Part shown: piece after piece, positions 485 through 26,602 of the stretch
Layout: each line of letters opens with the position of its first letter
Numbering within the stretch: the stretch's first letter is position 1
Source: an uncultured bacterium
Lineage (GTDB): Bacteria; Omnitrophota; Omnitrophia; Omnitrophales; Danuiimicrobiaceae
NCBI GenBank assembly: GCA_964522565.1
Contig: CAZFUU010000001.1
Span: 1 to 27,411 of the forward strand
DNA length: 27,411 nucleotides
Direction of reading: 5' to 3'
The notes under the pieces: generated by a model
Seen by the model: only the letters and a program-made list of their open reading frames with translations
What the model was told of the DNA's origin: nothing
The model's database searches: none
Position numbers and translations under genes: made by a program

Positions 485-1807
485 TTATTCAATAAAATGC
501 TTTTCAAGTATCGCGATTTTTTTCGCGGCGTCTCCCGCAAGTTCTTCGGGATATGAAATATCTTTCAACAACTGATACGCGGCCCGCCAGTCTTCCCTCT
601 CTATCAGATAAACGGCTTGTTCATGGTTCTTCTGAACCGCCATCAATGCTTCTTCGTTATTTTCCCGGATCACTTTTGCCTTCGCCTCCAAATCTTCTCT
701 TAACGCCGAGAAATCTGTGGAGGTCCCCTGCGGCGCGGGCGTCCGGGCCTGACGAATAATTGCCGTCTGAATCTCCTGGTCAATCTGCGAAAAAACTGGC
801 GGGTATTCCGGCGGAAGAGATGATTCCGGTGCCTGTGCGTATTGATTGATACGGCTCAAAAGATCTTCGGCCAGCATGCTTGCCTTGTTCCAGTCCCGCG
901 AATCAATCGCGCCCGCCAAGTCCTGATAGGATTGATCGATGCGGCGAAGCGAGTCACCCGACTGCTGATACGCAAAATATCCGCCGAACGCCGCCAGCTT
1001 CCCCAGAACATCGTTAATATACGGCCGAAGCATCACAAGGGCAATTGCGCGGTTTTTTTCAACGCTATTTTGATAAACGGGCAGTGCCAATCCGCTCAAC
1101 AGGGCATTTCTTGCCTGAAGATAATCTCCCTGCTCATAAAATTGGGCTGCTTTCAGATATCCGTTCTCGAACGCTTTTGTCACCCCCCGGACATACGCCC
1201 ATCCCAATGGAATTTTCCGCTGTTCCTGCGCCGATTTTAAAAATGCCTTGAAATCATCCAGGGACCAGAAATTCAAGGTTGGCGCTTGAGTTAATCCGGC
1301 AACGGAAGGGGCTCGGCGTTCCAAAATGTCAATTTCTCTCTCGCCAAGAGATCGTGGAATGGTTAATTGAAACGGCATTTTCAGTTGTGTCTTTTCATCT
1401 TCGGTCAAATCCGGCTTTTTTGCAACCACGGAAAGAACTGTCTTGGGTTGCGGCGGCTGAATCCGCAAAGGCGCGGGGGCAGACGTTTGCGGCAGAAACA
1501 GAGGCGATTTTTTGATCGAAGACAAGGCGTTTGAAACGGGCGCTTTAAAAAATAAAATTATTCCGCCAATCAAAAACGCCAGAACACAGCAAACAACGAA
1601 AATCCTGATCGCCAGCGATGAAAAGAAAAAATGCGGCGACGAAGCTCCTTGCGTTGCGGCTGTTTTAACCCGGGACACTTCCTTGTCCGCGCGGTCGTCT
1701 TCCAGAAGAGGGTCCAAAGCCGTTGTCCAAAAACACTTCGGACACCGTCTCAGATCTTCATTGCTCAAAATAAACACATGGCCGCAATGGCCGCATCGAA
1801 ATTTCAT
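485..1807 (-). CDS. Hypothetical bitopic membrane protein: N-terminal CxxC..CxxC zinc ribbon, one TM helix, Pro-rich linker, helical C-terminal domain
   Basis: 440-aa ORF with CGHC...CPKC, a hydrophobic stretch IFVVCCVLAFLIGGIILFF, and a predicted promoter upstream. Confidence 0.8.
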   Translation of the reverse strand: MKFRCGHCGHVFILSNEDLRRCPKCFWTTALDPLLEDDRADKEVSRVKTAATQGASSPHFFFSSLAIRIFVVCCVLAFLIGGIILFFKAPVSNALSSIKKSPLFLPQTSAPAPLRIQPPQPKTVLSVVAKKPDLTEDEKTQLKMPFQLTIPRSLGEREIDILERRAPSVAGLTQAPTLNFWSLDDFKAFLKSAQEQRKIPLGWAYVRGVTKAFENGYLKAAQFYEQGDYLQARNALLSGLALPVYQNSVEKNRAIALVMLRPYINDVLGKLAAFGGYFAYQQSGDSLRRIDQSYQDLAGAIDSRDWNKASMLAEDLLSRINQYAQAPESSLPPEYPPVFSQIDQEIQTAIIRQARTPAPQGTSTDFSALREDLEAKAKVIRENNEEALMAVQKNHEQAVYLIEREDWRAAYQLLKDISYPEELAGDAAKKIAILEKHFIE

Positions 1808-1832
1808 AAAAATCCTTCCCGATTTAGCTCAT

Positions 1833-1861
1833 AGTGTAGGCACAGCGTGAAACAAAATCAA
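1833..1861 (-). promoter_or_regulatory. Putative sigma70 promoter for the 440-aa gene
   Basis: Minus strand reads TTGATT-17 nt-TACACT. Confidence 0.45.
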
Positions 1862-2035
1862 TCTGAAAAAATCTGAATTTTTTCATTTTAGCGCGGGACG
1901 CGGGGACAAGTCGAATGTTGACTTTGGACATATCTCTGAATGCGGTAAAACATGGACGAACGCGGGGGGAAACGACCCAGGCTTTGGCGGGGGTGATACA
2001 GGATCTTCGAAGATACTCGCCGAAGCCACGGCGCT

Positions 2036-2428
2036 TTAAGCCGCGGCATCCAGCGCTTTTATAATTTTGGCGACAAGCTCGTCGTTTTTAAAAATCAGGC
2101 CGTCATGCTCCACTCCTTCAAGAAATGCCTGAAGTTTTTCGGCCGGATACCCGGTCACGATATAAATCGGGACATGAGACAGGGCTTCGATTTTTTTAAG
2201 AATTGAAATGATTTGGGTGCCGCTTGCCTGCGGAAGGTGAAAATCAATAAAAAGGACATCCGGCTTGGCAAAGATAATATCGTCTATCGTTTTATAACCG
2301 CTTTCGGAAACACAGGTACAAATCTCAAACCGGGAATGATTCAGCGACAAGCTGAGCATTTCCAGGAAATCCTTGTCGTCGTCAATAAAATACGCCCGTT
2401 TTCGCTGGGTGACAATTTCAGATGACAT
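2036..2428 (-). CDS. Single-domain response regulator (CheY-like receiver)
   Basis: FIDDD acidic pocket, PDVLFID phospho-Asp, IVTGY Thr and the conserved Lys in IFK. Confidence 0.9.
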   Translation of the reverse strand: MSSEIVTQRKRAYFIDDDKDFLEMLSLSLNHSRFEICTCVSESGYKTIDDIIFAKPDVLFIDFHLPQASGTQIISILKKIEALSHVPIYIVTGYPAEKLQAFLEGVEHDGLIFKNDELVAKIIKALDAAA

Positions 2429-2610
2429 ATTGTTTTTAATCCCTCTATGAACTTTACCACATGATACGGGAAAGAAAAGGGGCGGGAATCAAATAAAAAC
2501 AACAGGGAAAATCTTATTTTATTTCGAAACAAAGTCGTATGTGCTGATGCGTTCAAGCCATAACAAAATGCCCCCTGGCTTAATAAAACCCCCAATTATC
2601 CCGAAAAAAC

Positions 2611-2639
2611 TTGCAAAACCAATGTCGAATCGTTAAACT
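2611..2639 (+). promoter_or_regulatory. Putative sigma70 promoter of hflKC
   Basis: TTGCAA-17 nt-TAAACT, ending 19 nt before the ATG at 2659. Confidence 0.5.
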
Positions 2640-2658
2640 GGCCAGCAAAGGAGATAAA

Positions 2659-3753
2659 ATGCCGGAACCGAACGAATGGATGAAAAATCAAAGCCCCGAC
2701 AATGATCCGCCCCGGGATATTTTTGAGCGCATTTTCACGGACATTCGCATTATTTTCCTTGTTTTGATTATTCTTCTCCTCGGCTGGCTCGCCAGCGGAA
2801 TTTATGTCGTCCAGGAAGGCGAAATCGGCGTCATTCGCAGGTTCGGGAAAGAAGTCCGGCAAAGCTCCGCGGGCATCAATTACCGGCTTCCCTGGCCGGT
2901 TGAAACGGTGAACAAAGTCGACGTCGCATCTATCCGGCGCGCAGAGATAGGTTTCCGCACCAACAAAGGCCCCGCGCAAAGAACCCAGCGTGCCATTTCC
3001 GAGTCGCTCATGCTGACAGGCGATGAAAATATCGTCGACGCGCAAATGATCATTCAATATAAGGTACGGGATCCTTCCAAATTTTTATTCCGCCTGAGAG
3101 AACCGGAAGAAACGCTCCGGGTCGCCGCGGAAGTCGCCCTCAGAAGCACCGTCGGGAGGACAACCATTGACGATGTTTTAACCGTCGGCCGAGCCAAAGT
3201 TCAGGTGGAAACCGTCGCGTTTCTGCAAAAACTCATGGATGATTACGTCTCCGGAATTTTAATCACGGAATTGAAACTGCAAGTAGTCGATCCGCCTGAA
3301 CAGGTGAAAGACGCGTTTCATGAAGTCGTCCGCGCCCGCGAAGACCGCGAACGCGTAATCAATCAGTCGCGCGGCTATAAAGAAGACGTCATTCCAAAAG
3401 CCCGGGGAGAGGCCCAAAGAATTCTTCGGGAAGCGGAAGGGTATAAACAGGAGCGTATTCTGAAAGCCAGCGGGGACAGCGCCCGGTTTCTGGCGCTTTA
3501 CGAAGAGTATCAGAAAGCGAAAAAAGTCACGCGTGACCGGCTTTATTTGGAAACGATGGGAAGAATTCTTCCCCGAACGGATAAAATCCTTGTCGACCCG
3601 AATGCAAACGCGACCATCCTCCCCGTGATGGCTGCCGGCGCGAAATACATGGTACAATCCGATTATCAAAAAGCGCTTGACGGCGGAACTTCCCAGCCGG
3701 CGATGACGGCGGACGAATATGCCAAATCGATGATACGCAGGAGGAGCTTGTAA
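2659..3753 (+). CDS. hflK: FtsH protease modulator HflK (SPFH family)
   Basis: One TM helix, GLxYRLPWP-like GINYRLPWPVETV, MLTGDENIV, AFHEVVRAREDRER and RDRLYLETM. AAGGAG precedes the ATG at 2659. Followed directly by hflC. Confidence 0.95.
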   Translation: MPEPNEWMKNQSPDNDPPRDIFERIFTDIRIIFLVLIILLLGWLASGIYVVQEGEIGVIRRFGKEVRQSSAGINYRLPWPVETVNKVDVASIRRAEIGFRTNKGPAQRTQRAISESLMLTGDENIVDAQMIIQYKVRDPSKFLFRLREPEETLRVAAEVALRSTVGRTTIDDVLTVGRAKVQVETVAFLQKLMDDYVSGILITELKLQVVDPPEQVKDAFHEVVRAREDRERVINQSRGYKEDVIPKARGEAQRILREAEGYKQERILKASGDSARFLALYEEYQKAKKVTRDRLYLETMGRILPRTDKILVDPNANATILPVMAAGAKYMVQSDYQKALDGGTSQPAMTADEYAKSMIRRRSL

Positions 3754-4626
3754 ATGTCAAAGCGTCTGATTCCTTTTATCACCTTGGGGGCGCTGATCAT
3801 CCTGACCCTGTTGCCGCAGTCGCTTTTCGTCATTAATGAATGGGAGCAATGCATCATTACCAAATTCGGCCAGTACCGGCGCACCATCCGGGAGCCGGGT
3901 CTTCACTTGAAAATCCCGTTTCTTGAAAACGTCCAGCGTTATGACAAGCGCATTCTTGCCAATGACGCGCTGCCGGGCGAATATTTAACGAAAGACAAAA
4001 AACGCTTGTTGGCCGATCACGTGGTGCGATGGAAAATTTCCGATCCGCTGTTATTTTTCAAGTCGGTCCGAAACGAATTCGGCGCTTCTCACCGTTTGGA
4101 TGACATTGTGTTTTCGGAAATGCGGCGGGAATTGGCTGAAAACGATTTCGCCGATATTATCGCCCAGAAACGCGAACTTTTGATGGAAAATATTGCCGCC
4201 CGCGCGCATGAGTTGTCCAAGCAATTCGGAATCAACGTGGTTGATGTGCGCATCAAACGTGCCGATCTTCCTTTGGAAGTGCAGGCAAGCGTTTTTGCCC
4301 GGATGGTGGCGGAACGGGAACGCATCGCAAAACGTTACCGTTCCGAAGGCGAAGAAGAAGCGCAAAAAATCCGCGCGGAAACGGACAAGGAACGAACCAT
4401 TTTGCTCGCCGGGGCCTATGAAGAAGCCCAAAAAATCCGCGGAGAAGGCGAACAGGAGTCAACGCGGATTTATGCCGAAGCGTTCGGGAAAGATCCGGAA
4501 TTTTACCGGTTTATTAAAAGTATGGACACCTACGAACAAACCCTCCGGGAAGGAACCTCTCTCATCCTTTCATCGGATTCGGAATTATTCAGGTATTTTC
4601 AGCCTGTGACGCCGCGCGCTGAATAA
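3754..4626 (+). CDS. hflC: FtsH protease modulator HflC
   Basis: PGLHLKIPF, VDVRIKRADLP, RMVAERERIAKRYRSEGEEEA and AFGKDPEFYRFIKSM. Abuts hflK. Confidence 0.95.
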   Translation: MSKRLIPFITLGALIILTLLPQSLFVINEWEQCIITKFGQYRRTIREPGLHLKIPFLENVQRYDKRILANDALPGEYLTKDKKRLLADHVVRWKISDPLLFFKSVRNEFGASHRLDDIVFSEMRRELAENDFADIIAQKRELLMENIAARAHELSKQFGINVVDVRIKRADLPLEVQASVFARMVAERERIAKRYRSEGEEEAQKIRAETDKERTILLAGAYEEAQKIRGEGEQESTRIYAEAFGKDPEFYRFIKSMDTYEQTLREGTSLILSSDSELFRYFQPVTPRAE

Positions 4627-5380
4627 AGCGAAGCGGTTTCTCGAAAAAATCCTTGCCCGCAATCACGGAAAGCTCATTGTGAGTTCCATCCTGAATAGCA
4701 AAAATTTCTTTTGGGCCGGGCGCCTTTTCATATAATTTTTCCGCCATCGAAAAAGGCGCGATTTCATCCTGTGTTCCGTGCAAAATAAAAACAGGACAAC
4801 GAGCCTTCCCGATGATGGTTTCGTTATCAAGCTTGAAATCCCCCAAAAACATCCCGGCAACCGGCCCATAATGTTTTTTTCCGAGTTCTTCCATCGAAGT
4901 AAACGCGCTTTCCAAAATCAGGGAGTGAAACGCTTCCTGGGACGCCAATTCAACCGCCGGCGCCGAGCCGATCGATTCCCCGTAAAGAATAACCTGCCGG
5001 TTTTGAAACCCTCTTTGATTGAGCCAGGTGACGGCCGCTCGTGAATCCGCCATTAAATCGGACCCTTTTTTGATGCTTCCTTCGCTTTTACCGTAACCGC
5101 GATAATCCAGCAAAAAAACGGAAACGCCGTTTGTGACCCAATCTTTGGCTTTAAACAGCCGCATCGAAATATTTCCGGCGTTGCCATGGAGCAAAAGAAG
5201 ACAGGTTTTGCTTTCAGGCGCCGGTAAAAACCATCCATGCAGCCGGACATTGTCTTCCGTATTCAGATACACATCTTCCGCCTGCAATCCGAAATCTTCG
5301 GGCATTTGCACAAATTCTTTCGTCGGAAAAAAAATCATGGTCGCGATCATCGTATTCACCAGCCATTTGATTATATTCAT
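4589..5380 (-). CDS. Alpha/beta hydrolase (ABHD13/Bem46-like), ~263 aa
   Basis: HGNAGN oxyanion motif, DYRGYGKSEG, GESIG nucleophile elbow, HGTQDE Asp and GTHN His. Start moved to 5380 because the longer ORF overlaps plsY antisense. Confidence 0.9.
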   Translation of the reverse strand: MNIIKWLVNTMIATMIFFPTKEFVQMPEDFGLQAEDVYLNTEDNVRLHGWFLPAPESKTCLLLLHGNAGNISMRLFKAKDWVTNGVSVFLLDYRGYGKSEGSIKKGSDLMADSRAAVTWLNQRGFQNRQVILYGESIGSAPAVELASQEAFHSLILESAFTSMEELGKKHYGPVAGMFLGDFKLDNETIIGKARCPVFILHGTQDEIAPFSMAEKLYEKAPGPKEIFAIQDGTHNELSVIAGKDFFEKPLRFIQRAASQAENT

Positions 5381-5428
5381 ATGAATTGAGTTGCTTTTTG
5401 AAAATCCTGCCGGTATATTAACGCCGTT

Positions 5429-6070
5429 ATGATTTTTATCAACAATATTCTTTGGGCTCTGCTGGCATTTCTCGCAGGATCCATTCCGTCCGCTTATCTT
5501 GTCGCCAAATACGTCAAAGGCATCGATATTCGGGAACACGGAAGCGGAAACGTCGGCGCGACCAATGTTTTTCGCGTGGTCGGCAAAAAATGGGGTGTCG
5601 TTGTTTTTCTCCTGGATGCCCTCAAGGGCTGGATTGCCGCCGTGATTATCGCAACATCTCCGGACGCTTTTGTCAATCTGACTTATCCCCTGAAGCAACT
5701 CCTCTTCGGCGGAGCCGCGATTTGCGGGCACACGTTTACGCCGTGGCTGAAATTTAAAGGCGGCAAAGGCGTGGCAACGGCGGCCGGAGCGCTCCTCGGA
5801 ATTTTTCCGTTCGCGACACTCATCGCGATTCTCATATGGGCAATCGCGTTTGCCATTAGCCGTTATGTTTCAATTGCTTCGATGATTTCGGCGGCTTTGT
5901 TCCCGGTTTTGCTGGTCATTTTCCACCGAAGCACGGAGTCATTTGAACTTGTTTTCTCGGTTTGTGTGATTCTGGCGGGCTTGTTGATTTATAACCACCG
6001 TTCAAATATCCGGCGCCTGTTTGAAGGCCGGGAAGCACGGGCTCGGTTCACCAATCAAAAAACAAAATAG
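5429..6070 (+). CDS. plsY: Glycerol-3-phosphate acyltransferase PlsY
   Basis: GSIPSAY, DIREHGSGNVGATNVFR, GHTFTPWLKFKGGKGVATAAG and HRSNIRRL motifs. Confidence 0.95.
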   Translation: MIFINNILWALLAFLAGSIPSAYLVAKYVKGIDIREHGSGNVGATNVFRVVGKKWGVVVFLLDALKGWIAAVIIATSPDAFVNLTYPLKQLLFGGAAICGHTFTPWLKFKGGKGVATAAGALLGIFPFATLIAILIWAIAFAISRYVSIASMISAALFPVLLVIFHRSTESFELVFSVCVILAGLLIYNHRSNIRRLFEGREARARFTNQKTK

Positions 6071-6092
6071 CCCCGCTCGTGCGGCTGTTTCA

Positions 6093-6124
6093 GCTACTGT
6101 CCGGACTCATGTCTGGACAATAGC
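6093..6124. terminator. Hairpin between convergent plsY and the dsbD-like gene
   Basis: TGTCCGGAC-tcat-GTCTGGACA stem (one G-T pair) flanked by GCTA/TAGC. No clear U-tract. Confidence 0.4.
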
Positions 6125-7321
6125 TTACTCGTTCAACACATCAAGCAGTGAATTGCCCAGCGCCTGAAACTCGCCCGCTGAAACAAAGCCGGTGATTCGG
6201 GTATATTCAAATTCACGTCCGTCGGGACGAAGAAAAATAACGGTAGGCACGCCGAAAATGTCGTAACGGTTAATGATTTCCTCGGAAACGGCGTCATCCG
6301 GATCCGTTAAATCCATTTTAAATTTTTCAAACGGCTCAAACGCTTCAATGACCTGCGGATGCGAGTATGTAAACCTGTCCAGCTGATGACAGCTGATGCA
6401 CCAATCGGCGGAAAAATACAAGACAACGGGTTTTCCTTCCCTGAAAGCGGCTTCCAAAGAATCATCCGAATACGCGCGCCAGTTCATTTTTTCGCCCGGA
6501 GCGATAAAAAAAATCACCAAAGCGGCGACGACGCCGGCCGTTCCAACAACATGCCGCAGACGGGTGAAAACCTTACTGCCTTTCCCCGATTCATCAACAA
6601 AACCCAAATAAAACGCCCCGCTTCCTATTACAAGAGGCACAACAAGAGACAAGAAAGAAGGCGCCCATGCCACGCACAAATAAAAAGCCGCCAACCCGAT
6701 TAAAAGAACGCCGAACAGTTTTTTAATCCAAACCATCCACGCCCCCGACCGAGGCAAGCGGTCAAGCAACCCGGCAAAAGTCCCTAAAATCAGATAGGGG
6801 AATCCCAGCCCCATGGATAAAACAAAAAAAGTGATGAATCCTTTCCAGGCATTCCCTTCCTGCCCGACAACGGTCAAGAGCGCAATAATAGGAGGCCCGA
6901 CACAGGGAGCGGCAAATAACCCCACGAACATTCCGGAAAAGAAAAGACCTGCCAGACCAATATGCCGGAATCCTCCGATCCGGCCAAGCCAGGAAGACGG
7001 AATTTGAAATTCATACGCACCGAGCATCCCCGCGGATAGCACAAGCATGACCAGGGCAATGACCGTTAACGCCAAAGGCGTTTGGAAAAAAGCGCCGAAT
7101 AATTTTCCCGTTAATGCCGCGGCCAGGCCGAGAGAGCTGTACATGACGGCAATACCCAATACAAAAACCGCCGACCGCCCGAAAGCCAGAACCGAGTTTG
7201 CTGATTTTTTTCCGCCGAAAAGCGCCACGGTAACCGACAACATCGGATAAACGCAAGGAGTTAAATTAAGCGCGAGCCCTGATAAAAAAACGCCCAGTAA
7301 CCCCAGAATCGACAATTCCAT
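6125..7321 (-). CDS. Thiol:disulfide interchange protein, DsbD-like (TM domain plus thioredoxin domain, no N-terminal alpha domain)
   Basis: LTPCVYPM and APCVGP TM cysteines, LPRSGAWMV, and a C-terminal FSADWCISC thioredoxin motif with GVPT. Confidence 0.9.
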   Translation of the reverse strand: MELSILGLLGVFLSGLALNLTPCVYPMLSVTVALFGGKKSANSVLAFGRSAVFVLGIAVMYSSLGLAAALTGKLFGAFFQTPLALTVIALVMLVLSAGMLGAYEFQIPSSWLGRIGGFRHIGLAGLFFSGMFVGLFAAPCVGPPIIALLTVVGQEGNAWKGFITFFVLSMGLGFPYLILGTFAGLLDRLPRSGAWMVWIKKLFGVLLIGLAAFYLCVAWAPSFLSLVVPLVIGSGAFYLGFVDESGKGSKVFTRLRHVVGTAGVVAALVIFFIAPGEKMNWRAYSDDSLEAAFREGKPVVLYFSADWCISCHQLDRFTYSHPQVIEAFEPFEKFKMDLTDPDDAVSEEIINRYDIFGVPTVIFLRPDGREFEYTRITGFVSAGEFQALGNSLLDVLNE

Positions 7322-7948: not shown

Positions 7949-8325
7949 AACTAATCCTCCTCTGTATTATTTATTTGCGTAGTTTAAACCGATTCTCTCC
8001 GAAAAGCAACACCGGATATTTTTGCCGTTTATGCACTTTTCACTGCCATTCAAGGGGCGTATCTGATGCTGAAGCGGGATATTTACCCGTATCATATGCT
8101 AACATGAACAAGCCCCTGTGTGGACGGTTTGATGCGACACCCCGCCCTTTCTTCCCAAACAATCGCGCATCTATAAGGACGCGTTGTTTTTCCCAATCCG
8201 GTTTTATTCCGGAAATTTTTCGCACCGAACCATTTTCCCGCGATCATTCAGCGAAAAATTCGGTTTTCCAAAAATTGAAAAAATCTGTCGTCGCAAAATT
8301 TTTTTCATTTTTTGTCTTTTTTCCC

Positions 8326-8353
8326 TTGCACACTCAGGCGAATTTGCTAGAAT
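8326..8353 (+). promoter_or_regulatory. Putative sigma70 promoter of the hss-decarboxylase operon
   Basis: TTGCAC-16 nt-TAGAAT with an extended -10 (TGcTAGAAT). Confidence 0.55.
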
Positions 8354-8394
8354 CCAAATTTAGAAAAACTTTTTCAACAAAAAGGGGATTGATC

Positions 8395-9903
8395 ATGAAA
8401 GTAAAATTCCAGAACAAAGTATTAATGATTGGTTGCGGGGCTGTCGCGCAATGTTCACTCCCGATCATCAAAGATTTAATCGACATACCTTTCTCGAATA
8501 TTACCATCATGGATTTTGTCGATAACCGAAAGGAATTGCAGGTCCAAAATGCTTTAGGCCTGGGGGCTCGATATGTCATCGACAAAGTGACCAAAGATAA
8601 CTATAAAACGCTTCTTTCCCAATATGTCGGGAATGGAGACATGATTATCGACCTCGCCTGGGACATTGATACCTGCGATATGCTTCAATGGTGCCGGGAA
8701 CAAAACATTCTTTACATTAACGCCTCCTTCGAGCTCTGGGAGGCCTATACGGGCGACCAAGGCAAACACCCGACCGAATTTACGCTTTACGCGCGTCACA
8801 TGGTGTTAAGGAAAATTCTTGAAGGATGGAAAGACAACAAGGGCGCGACAGCGGTCCTGGATCACGGAGCAAACCCGGGGCTTATTTCTCATTTGGCCAA
8901 GCAGGGGCTTGAAGATATCGCCAATAAACTGATCTCCGAAAAGCCGACGGATGCGCGAGTGCCGGATTTAAAAAAATACCTCGCGGAGCAGAATTTCTCA
9001 AAGCTGGCTCAGCTGGAAGGCGTCAAAACAATCCACATCAGTGAACGCGACACCCAAATCACCTCAAAGCCGAAAAAGGTCAACGAGTTTGTTAACACCT
9101 GGAGCGTGTTGGGAATTTATGAAGAAGCGGTCGCGCCGGCAGAGCTCGGCTGGGGGACGCATGAACGGTTTATCCCAAAAGGCGCGATGTTTCATCGCGA
9201 GGGGCCTAAAAATCAGATTTGCCTCAGAAGCAAAGGCATGAAAACCTGGGTCAGGTCCTGGGTGCCCTGCGGAGAAATCACAGGAATGGTGATTCGCCAC
9301 GGCGAGGCCTTTTCGATATCGGAATATTTAACGGTATCGGAAGGCGGCAAGCCCGTTTACCGCCCTACGGTTCATTACGCCTATTGCTGCAGTGATATGG
9401 CGGTCAATTCACTGCATGAACTCGAAATGCGGCAGTATGACCTGCAAAAAGCACATCGAATCGTCAATGATGATATCACCGAAGGAAACGACGAGCTCGG
9501 ATGCCTCCTGATGGGGCATGACTTTAATTCCTGGTGGATCGGAAGCGTGCTGGACATCCATGAAGCCAGAAAGCTCGCGGCCGGGCAAAACGCGACAACA
9601 GTTCAAGTCGCCATTGGCGTCGTCGCGGCGGTTTGCTGGATGATACAAAATCCGCGCGAGGGCGTTTGCCTGCCTGAGCAATTGCCGCACAAGCAAATTC
9701 TGGAAACCTCCAAACCCTACCTTGGAAAATTTATTTCCCAAGCCGTGGATTGGACACCGGTAAAAAGCCGGAAAAACCTGTTCCTGGATTACGGCTATCA
9801 GGAGCCCAAACCGGAAGATACCTGGCAATTCACGACGTTTCTGGTCGATCCCTATGAGGTGGAGGAGCTTTCCGCCGCCGAATATGAAGAAGTCCGATCT
9901 TAG
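8395..9903 (+). CDS. hss: Homospermidine synthase
   Basis: KVLMIGCGAVA Rossmann motif, DHGANPGLISH, NTWS..GIYEE, ELGWGTHE, VIRHGEAFSI, RPTVHYAY and NATTVQVA. Start at ATG 8395 after AAGGGG. Confidence 0.92.
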   Translation: MKVKFQNKVLMIGCGAVAQCSLPIIKDLIDIPFSNITIMDFVDNRKELQVQNALGLGARYVIDKVTKDNYKTLLSQYVGNGDMIIDLAWDIDTCDMLQWCREQNILYINASFELWEAYTGDQGKHPTEFTLYARHMVLRKILEGWKDNKGATAVLDHGANPGLISHLAKQGLEDIANKLISEKPTDARVPDLKKYLAEQNFSKLAQLEGVKTIHISERDTQITSKPKKVNEFVNTWSVLGIYEEAVAPAELGWGTHERFIPKGAMFHREGPKNQICLRSKGMKTWVRSWVPCGEITGMVIRHGEAFSISEYLTVSEGGKPVYRPTVHYAYCCSDMAVNSLHELEMRQYDLQKAHRIVNDDITEGNDELGCLLMGHDFNSWWIGSVLDIHEARKLAAGQNATTVQVAIGVVAAVCWMIQNPREGVCLPEQLPHKQILETSKPYLGKFISQAVDWTPVKSRKNLFLDYGYQEPKPEDTWQFTTFLVDPYEVEELSAAEYEEVRS

Positions 9904-21639: not shown

Positions 21640-24600
21640 TTACGCGGCGGCGGCAATGGCTCGTTGCGCGGCCTGATGAATCGAAAGGATGCGGGCGAGA
21701 TTGGCAATATTCAAGCTAAACCGGAAATTCCCTTTTGAATCAATTATTTGAGGGTCGCCCATTTCCTTGAGAATTTGATCATTAAATGCCCTGCGCTCGT
21801 CCTCCGTGGACGGCAAATACGGCAAGAGCCACATTTGAAGAGAGACGACGGCGTTTCGGTCATTTTGCGCGACTTTATCAGAACTCGCTACGGATAAAAG
21901 CGCGGCAATTTGGTTTAGCGGGCCATCTTTCGGAATGATGCTTTCTGGCGCAAGAATACGAATCATCTGCCTGATTTGTGTTGCGGAAGTGACAGATTTC
22001 CCGTATTCACCCGCCCTTTTTTTATAATAAGTATAAAATTGTTGCCGGGCAATATCCGACGCTAGAATTTTTTCAGGTTCTTCGCCCTTTTTTATTTCTA
22101 CCAGTTCTACTCGGGCCAACACAGATGCCAGGGCTTCCCTGCTTAATCCTGCGGTTGATAGAACATGTTCAAGGTAATTTTTTGTCGCCAGCGAATAATA
22201 AACTGCGATGGCCGCTTCATTTCGGGCAAGCGTCTGAGCGAGCGCGATGATTTCGGAACGGAGCAATTTATCGGGTTCTGTTGCTTCCGCTGTCAAAGCA
22301 TCAGAGACAACTGCAAGCACGCGCGGCACAGATTTTTCTTGAAGTGCCGACGGACCGTATAACGCGGCTGTAACCGCCGATCTCAATTCTTCGGGAACGG
22401 CTTGGGCGATTAGTGCTTCGGTTAGCACGCCAAAGACATTTTCGGTGATGGACAAAGATTCAAGAGCTTCATCCAATGTTGCTCCCGCTTCAAGCGCTTT
22501 TCTGATCGTCTCAAGAGCGAGAGGATTATCTGAATATTTCAGAAGTTTTTCAATCGTTTCCATGAGCAAATTCCCCTCTAAAAGCAGGACGTCTCCGCTT
22601 AAATTGTTGGGGGCAAGATTTTTCGTTGGAGAAATTAAAGGCAGTTGGTCCGAAATGTTCGCCTCTCTTAAATCAACGACAACAGATTGATTAAACATTC
22701 CTGTGGTTTCCGCGGGCGGAGCGACTTCATCTTTCATCCCGGTTGCCCTCACATTTCTCCAATTGACCTCAAAGGTTCCCCGTTCGGGATAATATAAACC
22801 CCTGAAACCAAGCTCGACATATTTTTCTTCGCCAAACTCCCCAATGTAAAAACCGGCGGTTCCTTCGGCGCGCACGTATTGCGTTCCCGTAACCTTATTT
22901 ATTTCAATAATCGGATTTTTTACAAGAACAGACTCTACATAAGTATTAATCCGCTCGCGGGCTTCTTGTGTAAACTGTTGGTCCGATACACTGGTTCCTC
23001 TAATTGCTCTTGTAATCATCATTGCAACAACTGCTTTATTCACCAAAATCCAGTTCTGGACACCTGTACGGAAAGCACCGATTATTTCCAGCGCCGCCAG
23101 CGCGAACGTTCCCGCGAAAACGCCTGTGATCGCGCTGTCACCTTCCAGCATGATTTTGACATAATTTTCATTGCCCTGGTCGATTCCGACCTTGGGATTA
23201 ATCACGACATAGGAAATTTTATCTTTACGGAATTTTGCGGCCAGGCCGTCTTTGTGAAATCCTCCCGTCACGACAATGCTGCGTTCCGTCCCGGCCTGTT
23301 TCATGTTTTCGGTAATCCGCCTGAAAAACGCGCCGTCGCGCGTGAGCACCAGCCGGTAATAATATTCGAGCTCTTCCATCGCGCCGTCAAGGGAAGACAA
23401 ATCCCCGAAATCCGGCGCCGGAACAAGTTCTTTCTCAGCGAGGCCCTTGAGCCCGGAAACGATCACCGACGGCCGGATTTCATTCTGCCGGGCGACGTAA
23501 ACGCCCAGCAATTCGCGCGTCATGCTCAAGGCGAAAAACTGTTCGAGCAGGTTGGCGTCTTCAATCAGGCGAAGCAGGCGTTTTTGATCGTTTGTCGTAA
23601 ACAGCTTGTTTTCGATTTCGGCCTGGAATTTTTGAAGCTCGGGGAAAACGCCGCGATGATCGATTTCATCCTGATAGACAAGGTATTCGGTAAGAATCCG
23701 GATTTGCGGGTATCCCATAAAACTAACGTCGGTTTGGTCGGCGATCCGGGTCAGTTGCGTGAAATAATCACGCGGCTGTGTCCCGGTATCGGTGCGCCCG
23801 ATCCGGCTTAAAATGGGCTCAAAGGGCGCGGCGTCAGGCAGTTTGTTTTCCAGATTCGTTTTCAAATCAGCGCTTTCACGATCAAGTTTTGACCGGTCCA
23901 GCGCTTTTTCAAGCTCGTAGACCCTCATAATCCGCACCAGATTGGGATAGCGGGTAATTTCCCCCAAATTTTTTAAGGACGAAAGCCCGTTGGCTTCCGA
24001 TACTTGATTTAAATAAAGCAGATAATCGAGCAAATCGATTTTGTGCTGTGAAAATTCCCGGACCTTGCGGGTGAAATCGAGGCGCCCGAAATCAAAAATT
24101 TTCCGGCTAACGAGAGAGCTCAGCCGCTCAATTTTTGAAAAATAATCCCTGGCTTCCGCCTCTCTGGCGTAAACCGATTTGAATATGCGTAAATTTTCCA
24201 AATAAAGATCTTTGTCTTCGATTCCGAACAAATCAACCACCTTGTCCGTTTCGACCGCGAACGCGTCGGCGCCGCTGACCCTGCCCTCCCGGAGTAAAAA
24301 CTCCACCATTTTCAGGTTAGCTTCTTTCAAATAAGACGGTTGAAGAATTTGTGGATTCAGCTTTGAAAACGCGCCCTCAAGCTGAATCAGCGAAAATTGA
24401 TACTGCTCAACCAGATGCGCGAGAATTTTCCGGATATTCATCTGAGCTTCATAATTGGCGTGAACATCCTGTAAGTAAATCACGAGTGGGGAATCGGCGG
24501 CGCCGTGATAAATTTCCTCGATATTTCCGAATTCCGACGGAATGTTGATGTTATAGGGATTGAGATCGGGGCGAACAACTGTTTGGCCCGGATTCACCGA

Positions 24601-24771
24601 AGTTTTTGCCGGATTGAGAGAGGCGCCCGCGTCTTTCACCTGCCCGGCCGCGTCAGAAACCATTCCGGCCGTCTGGGCATAAACAGGTTGCGACACCGCC
24701 ATCGCGAGTCCGAGAAAAACAGCCAGAATTTTCCGCGAACAGATTTTAATCATTCTTTTTGGATTCCCCAT
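21640..24771 (-). CDS. Large (1043 aa) secreted protein with a putative EreA/ChaN/TraB-like N-terminal domain and a variable C-terminal half
   Basis: Uninterrupted ORF with a signal peptide ending VYA, motifs IYLQDVH, IQLEG, FGIED and RD...IVVTGGFH, ending QRAIAAAA. The start may be 24771 or 24753. Confidence 0.85.
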   Translation of the reverse strand: MGNPKRMIKICSRKILAVFLGLAMAVSQPVYAQTAGMVSDAAGQVKDAGASLNPAKTSVNPGQTVVRPDLNPYNINIPSEFGNIEEIYHGAADSPLVIYLQDVHANYEAQMNIRKILAHLVEQYQFSLIQLEGAFSKLNPQILQPSYLKEANLKMVEFLLREGRVSGADAFAVETDKVVDLFGIEDKDLYLENLRIFKSVYAREAEARDYFSKIERLSSLVSRKIFDFGRLDFTRKVREFSQHKIDLLDYLLYLNQVSEANGLSSLKNLGEITRYPNLVRIMRVYELEKALDRSKLDRESADLKTNLENKLPDAAPFEPILSRIGRTDTGTQPRDYFTQLTRIADQTDVSFMGYPQIRILTEYLVYQDEIDHRGVFPELQKFQAEIENKLFTTNDQKRLLRLIEDANLLEQFFALSMTRELLGVYVARQNEIRPSVIVSGLKGLAEKELVPAPDFGDLSSLDGAMEELEYYYRLVLTRDGAFFRRITENMKQAGTERSIVVTGGFHKDGLAAKFRKDKISYVVINPKVGIDQGNENYVKIMLEGDSAITGVFAGTFALAALEIIGAFRTGVQNWILVNKAVVAMMITRAIRGTSVSDQQFTQEARERINTYVESVLVKNPIIEINKVTGTQYVRAEGTAGFYIGEFGEEKYVELGFRGLYYPERGTFEVNWRNVRATGMKDEVAPPAETTGMFNQSVVVDLREANISDQLPLISPTKNLAPNNLSGDVLLLEGNLLMETIEKLLKYSDNPLALETIRKALEAGATLDEALESLSITENVFGVLTEALIAQAVPEELRSAVTAALYGPSALQEKSVPRVLAVVSDALTAEATEPDKLLRSEIIALAQTLARNEAAIAVYYSLATKNYLEHVLSTAGLSREALASVLARVELVEIKKGEEPEKILASDIARQQFYTYYKKRAGEYGKSVTSATQIRQMIRILAPESIIPKDGPLNQIAALLSVASSDKVAQNDRNAVVSLQMWLLPYLPSTEDERRAFNDQILKEMGDPQIIDSKGNFRFSLNIANLARILSIHQAAQRAIAAAA

Positions 24772-24855: not shown

Positions 24856-24887
24856 TCTGGGGTCAGAGCCCGGGCTCTGACCCCAGA
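24856..24887. repeat. Perfect 32-bp palindrome over the diguanylate cyclase stop codon
   Basis: TCTGGGGTCAGAGCCC|GGGCTCTGACCCCAGA, with no mismatch and no spacer. Confidence 0.9.
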
Positions 24888-26602
24888 TTCACATCCGGGC
24901 GGAAAATCGAGACCCGGTTCTTGCCTGAATGCTTGGCGTCGTAAAGCGCTGTGTCGGCGCCGCGGACCAGGGCGCGCGCGGCAGGCAACCCGTCTTCATG
25001 AACAGCCGCGACCCCAACGCTGACGGTCACGGGAGTCAAGTGGTTGACGTAACTTACTTTTTTTTCTTCCACCGCACGCCTGATTTTTTCTGCAATCCGG
25101 AGCGCCTCGAGTTTTGTCGTATGAGGGAGGACAACGCAAAATTCTTCTCCCCCGTAGCGCGCCCCGATATCGCCCGCCCTGACGTTTGCCTTAATCGCGT
25201 ACGCGACATTTTTGATCACATCATCGCCCGCAATGTGGCCGAGTGTGTCGTTAATTTGCTTGAAATCATCGATGTCCATCATCAGAATTGAAAGTTCATC
25301 CTCAAAATCGGTTTTCCGCCTGCTCCGGGTTTGGGCGAGCTTCGCGAGTTCTTCATCGAGCCGGAATTCAAGGGAGCGGCGGTTCGCAAGGCCCGTCAAC
25401 GGATCGGTCGCGGCCTTGCGCCGAAGCTGAAGGTTTTCAATCATCGTTCTCAAATAACGGTAAAACCCGACCGAGAAAAACACAACCCATCCTGAAAAAA
25501 CCGGGGCCAGAACGTCCGGAAGCGTGTTCCGAATGAAAAAAAAGTAGGAAACCCCAAGCCATCCGATGGTGATTACGGTCATCGCAAACAGCGCGGAAAA
25601 AATATTCAGAAAAAACACGGCGCCCGCGGATAAAAGCGCGACGCACGCAACCGCCAACAATTCCATTTTCCGGGGAAACGGCGGCAAAAAGTCCCGGTTG
25701 ACCAAGGTTTCGATCGCATTGATATTAATCACGACGCCGGGCATCCGTCCAAGGGGCGTCTGATGTTCGTCATGAATCATTTTTGACGTCGATCCGACCA
25801 GAACGACTTTACCGGCAACCTGTTGACGCCAACCATTTCCTTCCAGGATTTGCCACAGCGGAATCTGCGTGATATCCCGCGCGGCCAGCCGATAATTGAT
25901 ATTCGTCATCCCTCCTCGTCCCCGCAAAACCGAATACGTCGCGGCCCCGTCCGTAAACGGGAAGGACAGCCTGCCGGTCGCTTCTTCGTGGCGGCCAAGA
26001 TCGATTCCTAACATTTCGGCGCCGGCGCGCAATTCCCACGGCCAACTCACCGGCCGGCGGGATTGATCCGGATACAGAAGATTCAGACGGCGGACTGTTT
26101 GGTCGCGATCCACATATTTGTTGACGATTCCGGAAGCTCTGGCTGCCTGCGCCAAATCATTTAACGGGGGAATATAATTGCCCGAAGGATCGACAAAAGA
26201 AGCGAGAATGACTTTCCCTGATTTTCGAATGGTTTCCGCGAGCAAAAAATCATCGTCGGGCGTGCTTTTCCCGGCAAAGACAAAATCGAGCGCAATCAGC
26301 GAAGCGCCCGCCGCATCAAGCCGCGCGATTAAATCCGCGTAAATTGACCGGCGAAGGGGCCAGCGCTCGCGCAATCTTGCGATGGATTCATTGTCCACAG
26401 AAACCAAAACGAACCGGCCGGCCGTATCGGGTTTCGCAGAAATCGCGTGCCGGATTTGAAAAAAAACGTCCTGTGTTTTCAGGGCGAGCGTTTCAAACAC
26501 GGGAGACGGTTTTAAAATCGCGGCATACAGGACGACAGCGACAGCGGCAGTTGCCGCAGACTGAAAAATCCTGAAGGTGGTTTTTTTATCCATCGCGCTC
26601 AA
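24863..26602 (-). CDS. CHASE2-domain diguanylate cyclase
   Basis: N-terminal TM, CHASE2 motifs (WPLRRSIYA, IALDFVF, GKVVLVG, TPLGRMPGV), about three TMs, DPLTGLANRR, DIDDFKQINDTLGH, I-site RAGD and RYGGEEF. Start is TTG 26602 or ATG 26593. Confidence 0.93.
   Translation of the reverse strand: MSAMDKKTTFRIFQSAATAAVAVVLYAAILKPSPVFETLALKTQDVFFQIRHAISAKPDTAGRFVLVSVDNESIARLRERWPLRRSIYADLIARLDAAGASLIALDFVFAGKSTPDDDFLLAETIRKSGKVILASFVDPSGNYIPPLNDLAQAARASGIVNKYVDRDQTVRRLNLLYPDQSRRPVSWPWELRAGAEMLGIDLGRHEEATGRLSFPFTDGAATYSVLRGRGGMTNINYRLAARDITQIPLWQILEGNGWRQQVAGKVVLVGSTSKMIHDEHQTPLGRMPGVVININAIETLVNRDFLPPFPRKMELLAVACVALLSAGAVFFLNIFSALFAMTVITIGWLGVSYFFFIRNTLPDVLAPVFSGWVVFFSVGFYRYLRTMIENLQLRRKAATDPLTGLANRRSLEFRLDEELAKLAQTRSRRKTDFEDELSILMMDIDDFKQINDTLGHIAGDDVIKNVAYAIKANVRAGDIGARYGGEEFCVVLPHTTKLEALRIAEKIRRAVEEKKVSYVNHLTPVTVSVGVAAVHEDGLPAARALVRGADTALYDAKHSGKNRVSIFRPDVNLGSEPGL

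Follow-up and report, generated by a model that had tools for sequence, protein, structure and literature searches.

In a 27,411-nucleotide stretch of DNA from an uncultured Omnitrophota bacterium (contig CAZFUU010000001.1, assembly GCA_964522565.1; the whole stretch is called the window below), one large gene on the minus strand changes its codon usage abruptly inside its reading frame. What does such a break mark? The original prediction for this locus took it for a foreign-looking cassette, a swappable payload set between a constant N-terminal module and a constant tail, as in polymorphic toxin or adhesin systems. Our analysis points to another answer. We consider it probable that this is a mosaic gene for a secreted two-part protein specific to Omnitrophota, in which a conserved N-terminal domain is joined to a hypervariable, recombining C-terminal module with segmentally AT-shifted codons.

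To describe the break, we used the G+C content at third codon positions (GC3), with the per-amino-acid codon usage of the other 21 genes in the window as the expectation. GC3 is 0.580 in codons 1-562, 0.426 in codons 563-1020 and 0.61 in the last 23 codons, and so it is not flat across the gene. The amino-acid-corrected deviation is z = -7.1 for the C-terminal part and z = +1.2 for the N-terminal part. The single change-point scan placed the best break at codon 564 (t = 5.9), a value reached by 0 of 1000 permutations, and the two-breakpoint fit gave a low-GC3 segment running from codon 563/578 to codon 970/979, with its 3' end at about 21835-21862 in the window. The genome-rare codons GCA, AGA, CGA, GGT, CTA, ACA and GTA are enriched 2- to 9-fold in the C half. 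The other genes have GC3 values of 0.48-0.67, and none of them contains a real within-gene break of comparable size. The sharp break proposed in the original prediction is thus real and above chance. Its hand count, 19 G/C-ending codons among the 30 up to GAA at 23086-23088 against 10 among the next 30, was reproduced exactly, although taken alone the count is marginal (Fisher p = 0.038).

Two details needed correction. The codon shift behind the low GC that had been spot-checked in 22000-23050 held, but total GC did not serve as its marker: the N-terminal stretch 23800-24400 is also GC-low, because of its amino-acid content. The late recovery to GCC and GCG codons likewise exists, but it starts about 65-75 codons before the stop and not about 20, and the usage of the last 23 codons matches the expectation for an Ala-rich tail (z = -0.25). 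Contigs from two independent public runs cross position 23086 with zero differences from the window, which excludes a chimera: the junction is not a product of assembly. Coverage of the locus in these runs is about 3x, which confirms the junction and could not show population variants. The organism of the window is present in wastewater metagenomes at about this coverage.

A low-GC3 signal was also seen in the open reading frame (ORF) at 7975-9903 on the plus strand, in its first ~161 codons (7975-8460; t = -4.65), and was rejected as a second real break. Since the saccharopine dehydrogenase Pfam domains of this ORF begin at amino acid (aa) 149, the ORF is over-extended upstream; it probably has been extended from a TTG, with the true start later.

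We then compared the large gene with its homologues. About 40 were found in Omnitrophota metagenome bins, nearly all of 980-1080 aa. The N half is 41-54% identical to them, and the alignments of every close homologue stop at query residues 557-562, whereas in the C half identity does not exceed 28% and is seen with few of them. In an alignment of 32 sequences, columns as far as residue ~566 have a mean conservation of 0.6-0.8, against ~0.25-0.35 for those beyond. The final conserved stretch before the collapse is the nearly invariant VFAGTFAL motif. The GC3 break coincides with the point at which identity collapses in all homologues (aa 558-562), and the expectation that it would fall right after a conserved domain was borne out.

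The C halves are nevertheless relatives of one another. Of the 32, 31 were linked by phmmer at 1e-3; they are colinear and of similar length, at 15-30% identity, and end in a common terminal helix with a C-terminal Ala. Full-length colinear homology, which the original prediction had named as grounds against itself, therefore extends through the gene, though its C half runs only at this low identity. When the C-half profile was compared with 1.84 billion representative proteins, it matched 23 proteins, all of the same family, so the module is not a payload travelling between different scaffolds. A k-mer homologue search with the C half alone as the query returned nothing.

The GC3 drop recurs across the family. 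Among ten close orthologous loci with a usable local background, eight showed the C-half deficit (L001, L002, L003, L005, L006, L008, L081 and L084; corrected z -3.7 to -7.7), and in most of these eight the best change-point lay close to the same boundary. The C half is below the N half in GC3 in 10 of 11 close-clade genes. Where distant relatives have a C extension (~500-2000 aa), GC3 of the N domain matches the background, while that of the extension often lies well beneath it (z = -15.8, -11.8, -9.3 and others); this applies above all to mid- and high-GC genomes, and there are exceptions. Since most orthologues carry the same drop, it is a family trait, and a single recent import was rejected. 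The C-half GC3 of close-clade genes rises and falls with the host background (r = 0.91), at a mean 0.08 lower, so the cassettes have not newly arrived from one low-GC pool, and the foreign look of the segment did not survive the comparison.

To relate the deficit to sequence constraint, GC3 was examined by per-column conservation in five genes. Variable columns of the N half have no deficit (+0.02, n = 256), while those of the C half deviate at every level: -0.07 in conserved, -0.10 in mid-conserved and -0.13 in variable columns. The deficit is segmental and independent of per-site conservation. This test ruled out an Akashi-type explanation, in which codon selection is weaker where residues are unconstrained, as the main cause.

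The two halves also differ in their histories. Pairwise identities are uncoupled: P0015 and P0019 are 0.90 identical in the N half and 0.18 in the C half, P0012 and P0019 are 0.87 and 0.72, and P0021 and P0023 are 0.94 and 0.33. Bootstrapped neighbor-joining trees of the N and C halves contain mutually exclusive clades at 100% bootstrap. The N-half clades are P0015+P0019, P0004+P0010+P0011 and P0013+P0020+P0024; the C-half clades are P0012+P0019, P0011+P0017, P0004+P0016 (98%) and P0006+P0008+P0013+P0024+P0025. Sliding identity showed that P0019 is 0.8-0.95 identical to both P0015 and P0012 through the N half, and that beyond residue ~541 its identity drops to 0.1-0.26 with P0015 but stays mostly at 0.7-0.9 with P0012. 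A second partner switch was seen in P0020 beyond residue ~780, near the disordered linker. The conflicting trees and the partner switches at the junction argue that C modules have been exchanged between lineages. Within the C half, variation in the last 70 aa goes along with that in the variable alpha/beta sub-domain rather than with that in the N half, and the first sub-domain tracks the N half more closely. Of the swappable payload, the exchange between lineages therefore stood, while the notion of different payloads did not, the C halves being homologous and colinear. The constant tail had to be given up, since only the final ..A-x-x-A or AA-COOH is general.

Exchange does not account for all of the divergence. 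L081 and L084 are syntenic loci whose flanking genes share 75-93% identity; their N halves are 93% identical and their C halves 35%, with nucleotide identity stepping from 0.85 to 0.5 at about nucleotide 1650. These two are sisters in both trees, so part of the divergence has arisen in place, without swapping. Between orthologues of the same C type, the ratio of nonsynonymous to synonymous substitution rates (dN/dS) is 0.27-0.41 for the C half, compared with 0.04-0.12 for the N half. It could be proposed that the C half has diverged rapidly in place with no recombination at all, and that low GC3 reflects relaxed codon selection in a weakly constrained or positively selected region. The 3- to 10-fold higher dN/dS, the C-half GC3 that follows the host, the congruence of L081 and L084 in both halves, and the short-term stability of the gene (an identical 1000-aa protein, P0021, was assembled from three samples) are all consistent with that proposal. 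We regard it as unlikely, however, because it does not explain the mutually exclusive clades at full bootstrap, the abrupt switch at the junction (0.9 to 0.18 against one partner, 0.87 to 0.72 against the other) or a GC3 deficit that is independent of how conserved each site is. Along a gene, codon bias as a rule increases; here it decreases.

A recently acquired foreign cassette, serving as the payload of a polymorphic toxin or adhesin between a constant N module and a constant tail, is very unlikely. The sharp segmental break with its rare codons, the conserved motif at the junction and the lack of a close relative for the C allele of the window would all fit such a cassette. Most orthologues have the same break, however, the C halves form one homologous family found only here, and the tail changes together with the variable part. 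Pfam and NCBIfam showed no toxin or adhesin domain, and Foldseek against PDB and viral libraries no such fold. As the original prediction stated, no immunity-like gene follows: there is no ORF of at least 60 aa between the stop of the large gene and the gene for a major facilitator superfamily (MFS) transporter, which lies 142 nucleotides past the stop, and the downstream gene differs among the orthologous loci (GCV_T or DUF748). The window encodes no integrase, transposase or reverse transcriptase. A repeat scan yielded nothing beyond short repeats at chance level and no flanking repeats, and genomic-island hallmarks (mobility genes, tRNA or direct repeats at the borders) are missing at the segment. 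The variable segment occupies the same place in all orthologues, i.e. it is not absent from orthologous loci. The recent-import reading is largely refuted.

Programmed hypermutation of the C half, by a diversity-generating retroelement (DGR) or another targeted mutator, is more improbable still. The extreme variability stays within one segment, whose synonymous sites lean toward A/T, as a mutator might leave them; but the window has neither a reverse transcriptase nor, in the repeat scan, a template/variable repeat pair, and the variable stretch is 1.2-1.4 kb, about ten times longer than DGR targets. The identity of P0021 in three independent samples indicates a gene stable in the short term, contrary to hypermutation, and the contigs from other runs are identical to the window. 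An assembly or gene-calling artefact (a chimeric contig or two fused genes) would suit the low-coverage metagenome (~3x) from which the window comes, but it has next to no chance of being correct, given the independent contigs that span the junction without differences, a reading frame uninterrupted across 21640-24771 on the minus strand, and the same ~1000-aa architecture in about 40 homologues from many studies.

What, then, is the conserved half? The N domain is predicted to have an alpha/beta core split by a helical insertion of ~300 aa. Across the 41 sequences of the wide family, which are ~25% identical, invariance is seen in the His of HANYE, the Glu of (L/V)EG at +28, an Arg and GG-x-H; the invariant His, Glu and GGxH follow predicted strands. 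In the TIKI superfamily, two His and two Glu form a site on a core of parallel beta-sheet, and the His-to-Glu spacing is the one seen here (PMC6254334). The N domain may possibly be a very remote TIKI/ChaN-like hydrolase. The likeness to the TIKI, ChaN and erythromycin-esterase proteins concerns the N domain only, and consists of the predicted alpha/beta core, the invariant His, the Glu at +28 and the C-terminal GGxH. The domain differs from them in the ~300-aa insertion that divides the core, and in the residue two before the first His, which is Asp or Asn here and not Glu. PF04187 (ChaN/Tiki) was the only recurrent Pfam family: it reached 27.1 bits in the distant relative P0043 (cut-off 27.7), and E values of 0.027 or more in 5 of 41 others. 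A recurrent PF09713 hit was discounted, with 16 bits on a helical stretch. Searches of Pfam, NCBIfam and PDB sequences with the protein and with family alignments found nothing above threshold.

The C half was modeled with AlphaFold (predicted local distance difference test score, pLDDT, 78; full length, 70). Along the chain, the model shows an alpha+beta unit resembling NTF2, then a disordered linker, a helical unit and finally an alpha/beta unit of Rossmann-like form. The first unit has an NTF2/cystatin-like shape, without a significant fold match. The structure search of the C half advised in the original prediction gave no hit at E <= 0.001 when Foldseek was run with the C-half model against PDB and viral libraries. 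The junction (23098-23160, aa ~540-561 in P0001 numbering) has a Kyte-Doolittle 19-residue mean of 1.78 and low model confidence. A hydrophobic N-terminal segment is present in many homologues.

The large gene also has a constant companion. Directly upstream of it, and on its strand, stands a CHASE2-GGDEF diguanylate cyclase gene, both in the window and in twelve or more other loci, in ten distinct contexts (L001, L003, L005, L006, L008, L009, L012, L081-L084, L087 and L088), and it is there in every close-clade locus having upstream sequence. The two genes form a conserved two-gene unit. In a promoter and terminator scan, at chance level overall, no terminator was found on the strand of the genes between cyclase and large gene. 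In the literature, we found no description of the family or of its pairing with CHASE2. The arrangement resembles YfiR/YfiN, a conserved pair in which a secreted protein stands beside a membrane diguanylate cyclase with a periplasmic sensor. There is no homology to that pair, an interaction would be by analogy only, and the protein here is far larger and half hypervariable.

Several observations weigh against the mosaic-gene reading or parts of it. Because L081 and L084 are sisters in both trees, swapping is not needed for that pair, and the C allele of the window itself has no relative above 28% identity, so no swap is demonstrated for the window gene. In the N half, its nearest relative stands at 53%. 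The deficit is missing in L009 and L011, which come from higher-GC genomes, and in several distant relatives, and the C-half GC3 in the close clade follows the host as described above. In about 9 of 40 members the junction exceeds a crude transmembrane threshold, so that a membrane could separate the two halves. We infer the function and cell location of the protein and the TIKI assignment of its N domain: the window protein has no Pfam hit, PF04187 in relatives is always below threshold, and Foldseek with the full-length model gave nothing significant (3b55 at E = 0.73).

With these points in mind, the mosaic gene may be described as follows. The N-terminal ~560 aa are a strongly conserved domain, possibly a TIKI/ChaN-like hydrolase, and the C-terminal ~480 aa a hypervariable, family-specific module made of an NTF2-like sub-domain, a linker, a helical and an alpha/beta sub-domain, and a terminal helix. 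The C half probably diverges in two ways, by several-fold faster evolution in place and by exchange of whole or partial modules through recombination, with crossovers at the invariant VFAGTFAL junction, likely a crossover region, and at the internal linker. The AT-shifted codons belong to the DNA segment as a whole and reflect no single foreign import. The shift may arise from a segment history uncoupled from the rest of the chromosome, with alleles drawn from a divergent pool, and the forces that raise GC3 (selection, or GC-biased gene conversion during homologous recombination) may be weak inside the divergent segment. The constant N domain may act together with the neighboring CHASE2-GGDEF cyclase, and the variable half could be a recognition surface under diversifying selection. 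Table 1 lists the parts of the gene.

Table 1. Coordinates of the large gene, its parts and its upstream neighbor in the window
Feature	Position	Strand	Remarks
Whole gene	21640-24771	minus	1043 aa + stop; member of an uncharacterized Omnitrophota-specific protein family
Alternative start, Met7	24753	minus	Start used in database copy P0001
Putative Sec signal peptide, aa 7-32 (MIKICSRKILAVFLGLAMAVSQPVYA)	24676-24753	minus	Read from the sequence
Conserved N-terminal domain, aa ~75-562	23086-24549	minus	Alpha/beta core with ~300-aa helical insertion (predicted); genome-typical GC3
QDVHANYEAQ motif, aa 101-110	24442-24471	minus	His invariant family-wide
QLEGA motif, aa 130-134	24370-24384	minus	Invariant Glu, +28 residues from the invariant His
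TGGFH motif, aa 502-506	23254-23268	minus	Invariant Gly-Gly-x-His
VFAGTFAL junction motif, aa 551-558	23098-23121	minus	Last conserved stretch; moderately hydrophobic; low model confidence
AT-shifted codon-usage segment, codons 563-~975	21847-23085	minus	3' limit +/- ~15 codons
Variable sub-domain C1, aa 563-677	22741-23085	minus	Two helices and a four-stranded antiparallel sheet (model)
Linker, aa 689-732	22576-22707	minus	Low confidence, probably disordered; second recombination breakpoint in homologues
Helical sub-domain of the variable half, aa 737-805	22357-22563	minus	Model
Rossmann-like alpha/beta sub-domain of the variable half, aa 817-1020	21712-22323	minus	pLDDT mostly >85
Terminal helix ending ..AAQRAIAAAA	21643-21708	minus	C-terminal Ala near-invariant in long family members
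CHASE2-GGDEF diguanylate cyclase	24863-26602	minus	Directly upstream, same strand as the large gene

The rest of the window is ordinary chromosomal DNA. Its genes encode SPFH proteins, DsbD, saccharopine dehydrogenase, a pyridoxal phosphate-dependent decarboxylase, Hsp20, P-II, an ammonium transporter, RsmB, TrkA, TrkH, the MFS transporter, the CHASE2-GGDEF cyclase and cysteine synthase. The region 485-7321 has DsbD, an alpha/beta hydrolase, a response regulator, a ~430-aa protein of no known kind and cysteine synthase in common with L081 (1-4636), and this shared gene content indicates the same broad lineage.

The N domain was also seen at the head of far longer proteins of more than 2500 aa, many of them running off their contigs. 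Examples of long proteins are L010 (ORF of at least 2583 aa) and P0031 (1765 aa), the latter with an extra ~860 aa separating its N domain from its C module. Much longer N-domain-headed proteins, or several paralogues per genome (3-4), or both, occur at L010, P0031, L013-L015, L021, L022, L030, L035, L051, L066, L072 and L079. The long members (1000-2300 aa) all end in a helix with ..A-x-x-[AS]-A or ..AA-COOH, whatever the length or sequence of the C region; this helix was seen in L012, L016, L017, L025, L027 and L036, and its copy in the window is at 21643-21672. Short forms consisting of the N domain only lack it. The terminal Ala motif may be a C-terminal recognition or sorting motif.

Among known systems, the closest pattern is the mosaic hypervariable gene, and what is new here is a member in an uncharacterized Omnitrophota family. 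Like the central region of fliC, the type IV pilins and transferrin-binding protein B, this gene combines a conserved part with a hypervariable part of the same fold, exchange with crossovers in conserved sequence, conflicting phylogenies and a lower-GC variable part. It differs from them in belonging to an unrelated family, in that surface exposure is a supposition here, in that the variable part is the C-terminal half with a very short conserved end, and in that the GC3 deficit recurs in many genomes. With the polymorphic toxins (Rhs, CdiA and WapA) it shares a constant N part, a variable C end and evidence of C-end exchange. A conserved motif, VFAGTFAL, marks the junction as well, although it is none of the known pre-toxin motifs. 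In contrast to those toxins, whose C ends are unrelated toxin folds, the C ends here are all homologous. There is no immunity gene, toxin domain, orphan cassette or Rhs, filamentous or T5-T7 secretion domain.

The findings bear on how codon-usage breaks are read. A break within a gene can mark a recombining hypervariable module and not necessarily foreign DNA. It can also be a stable trait of a gene family at a fixed domain boundary, which bears on how GC3 is maintained in bacteria, by selection or biased gene conversion as opposed to mutation. The recurrent segmental GC3 deficit is to us the most interesting detail of this family.

Omnitrophota have almost no cultured members and have been proposed to live as episymbionts or predators on other cells. 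A more far-reaching version of the mosaic-gene reading, which we hold to be a speculative long shot, is that the family forms a partner-recognition system with a phylum-wide pool of recombining alleles. The C module would bind a variable target on a host, prey or kin cell, the TIKI-like N domain would process the signal or relay it to the CHASE2 cyclase, and the cyclic di-GMP output would depend on the C allele carried. Exchange of alleles at the domain junctions would leave the recurrent AT-shifted codon signature. With its diguanylate-cyclase partner and its diversifying half, the family is a reasonable candidate for studies of cell-cell or host interaction in Omnitrophota.

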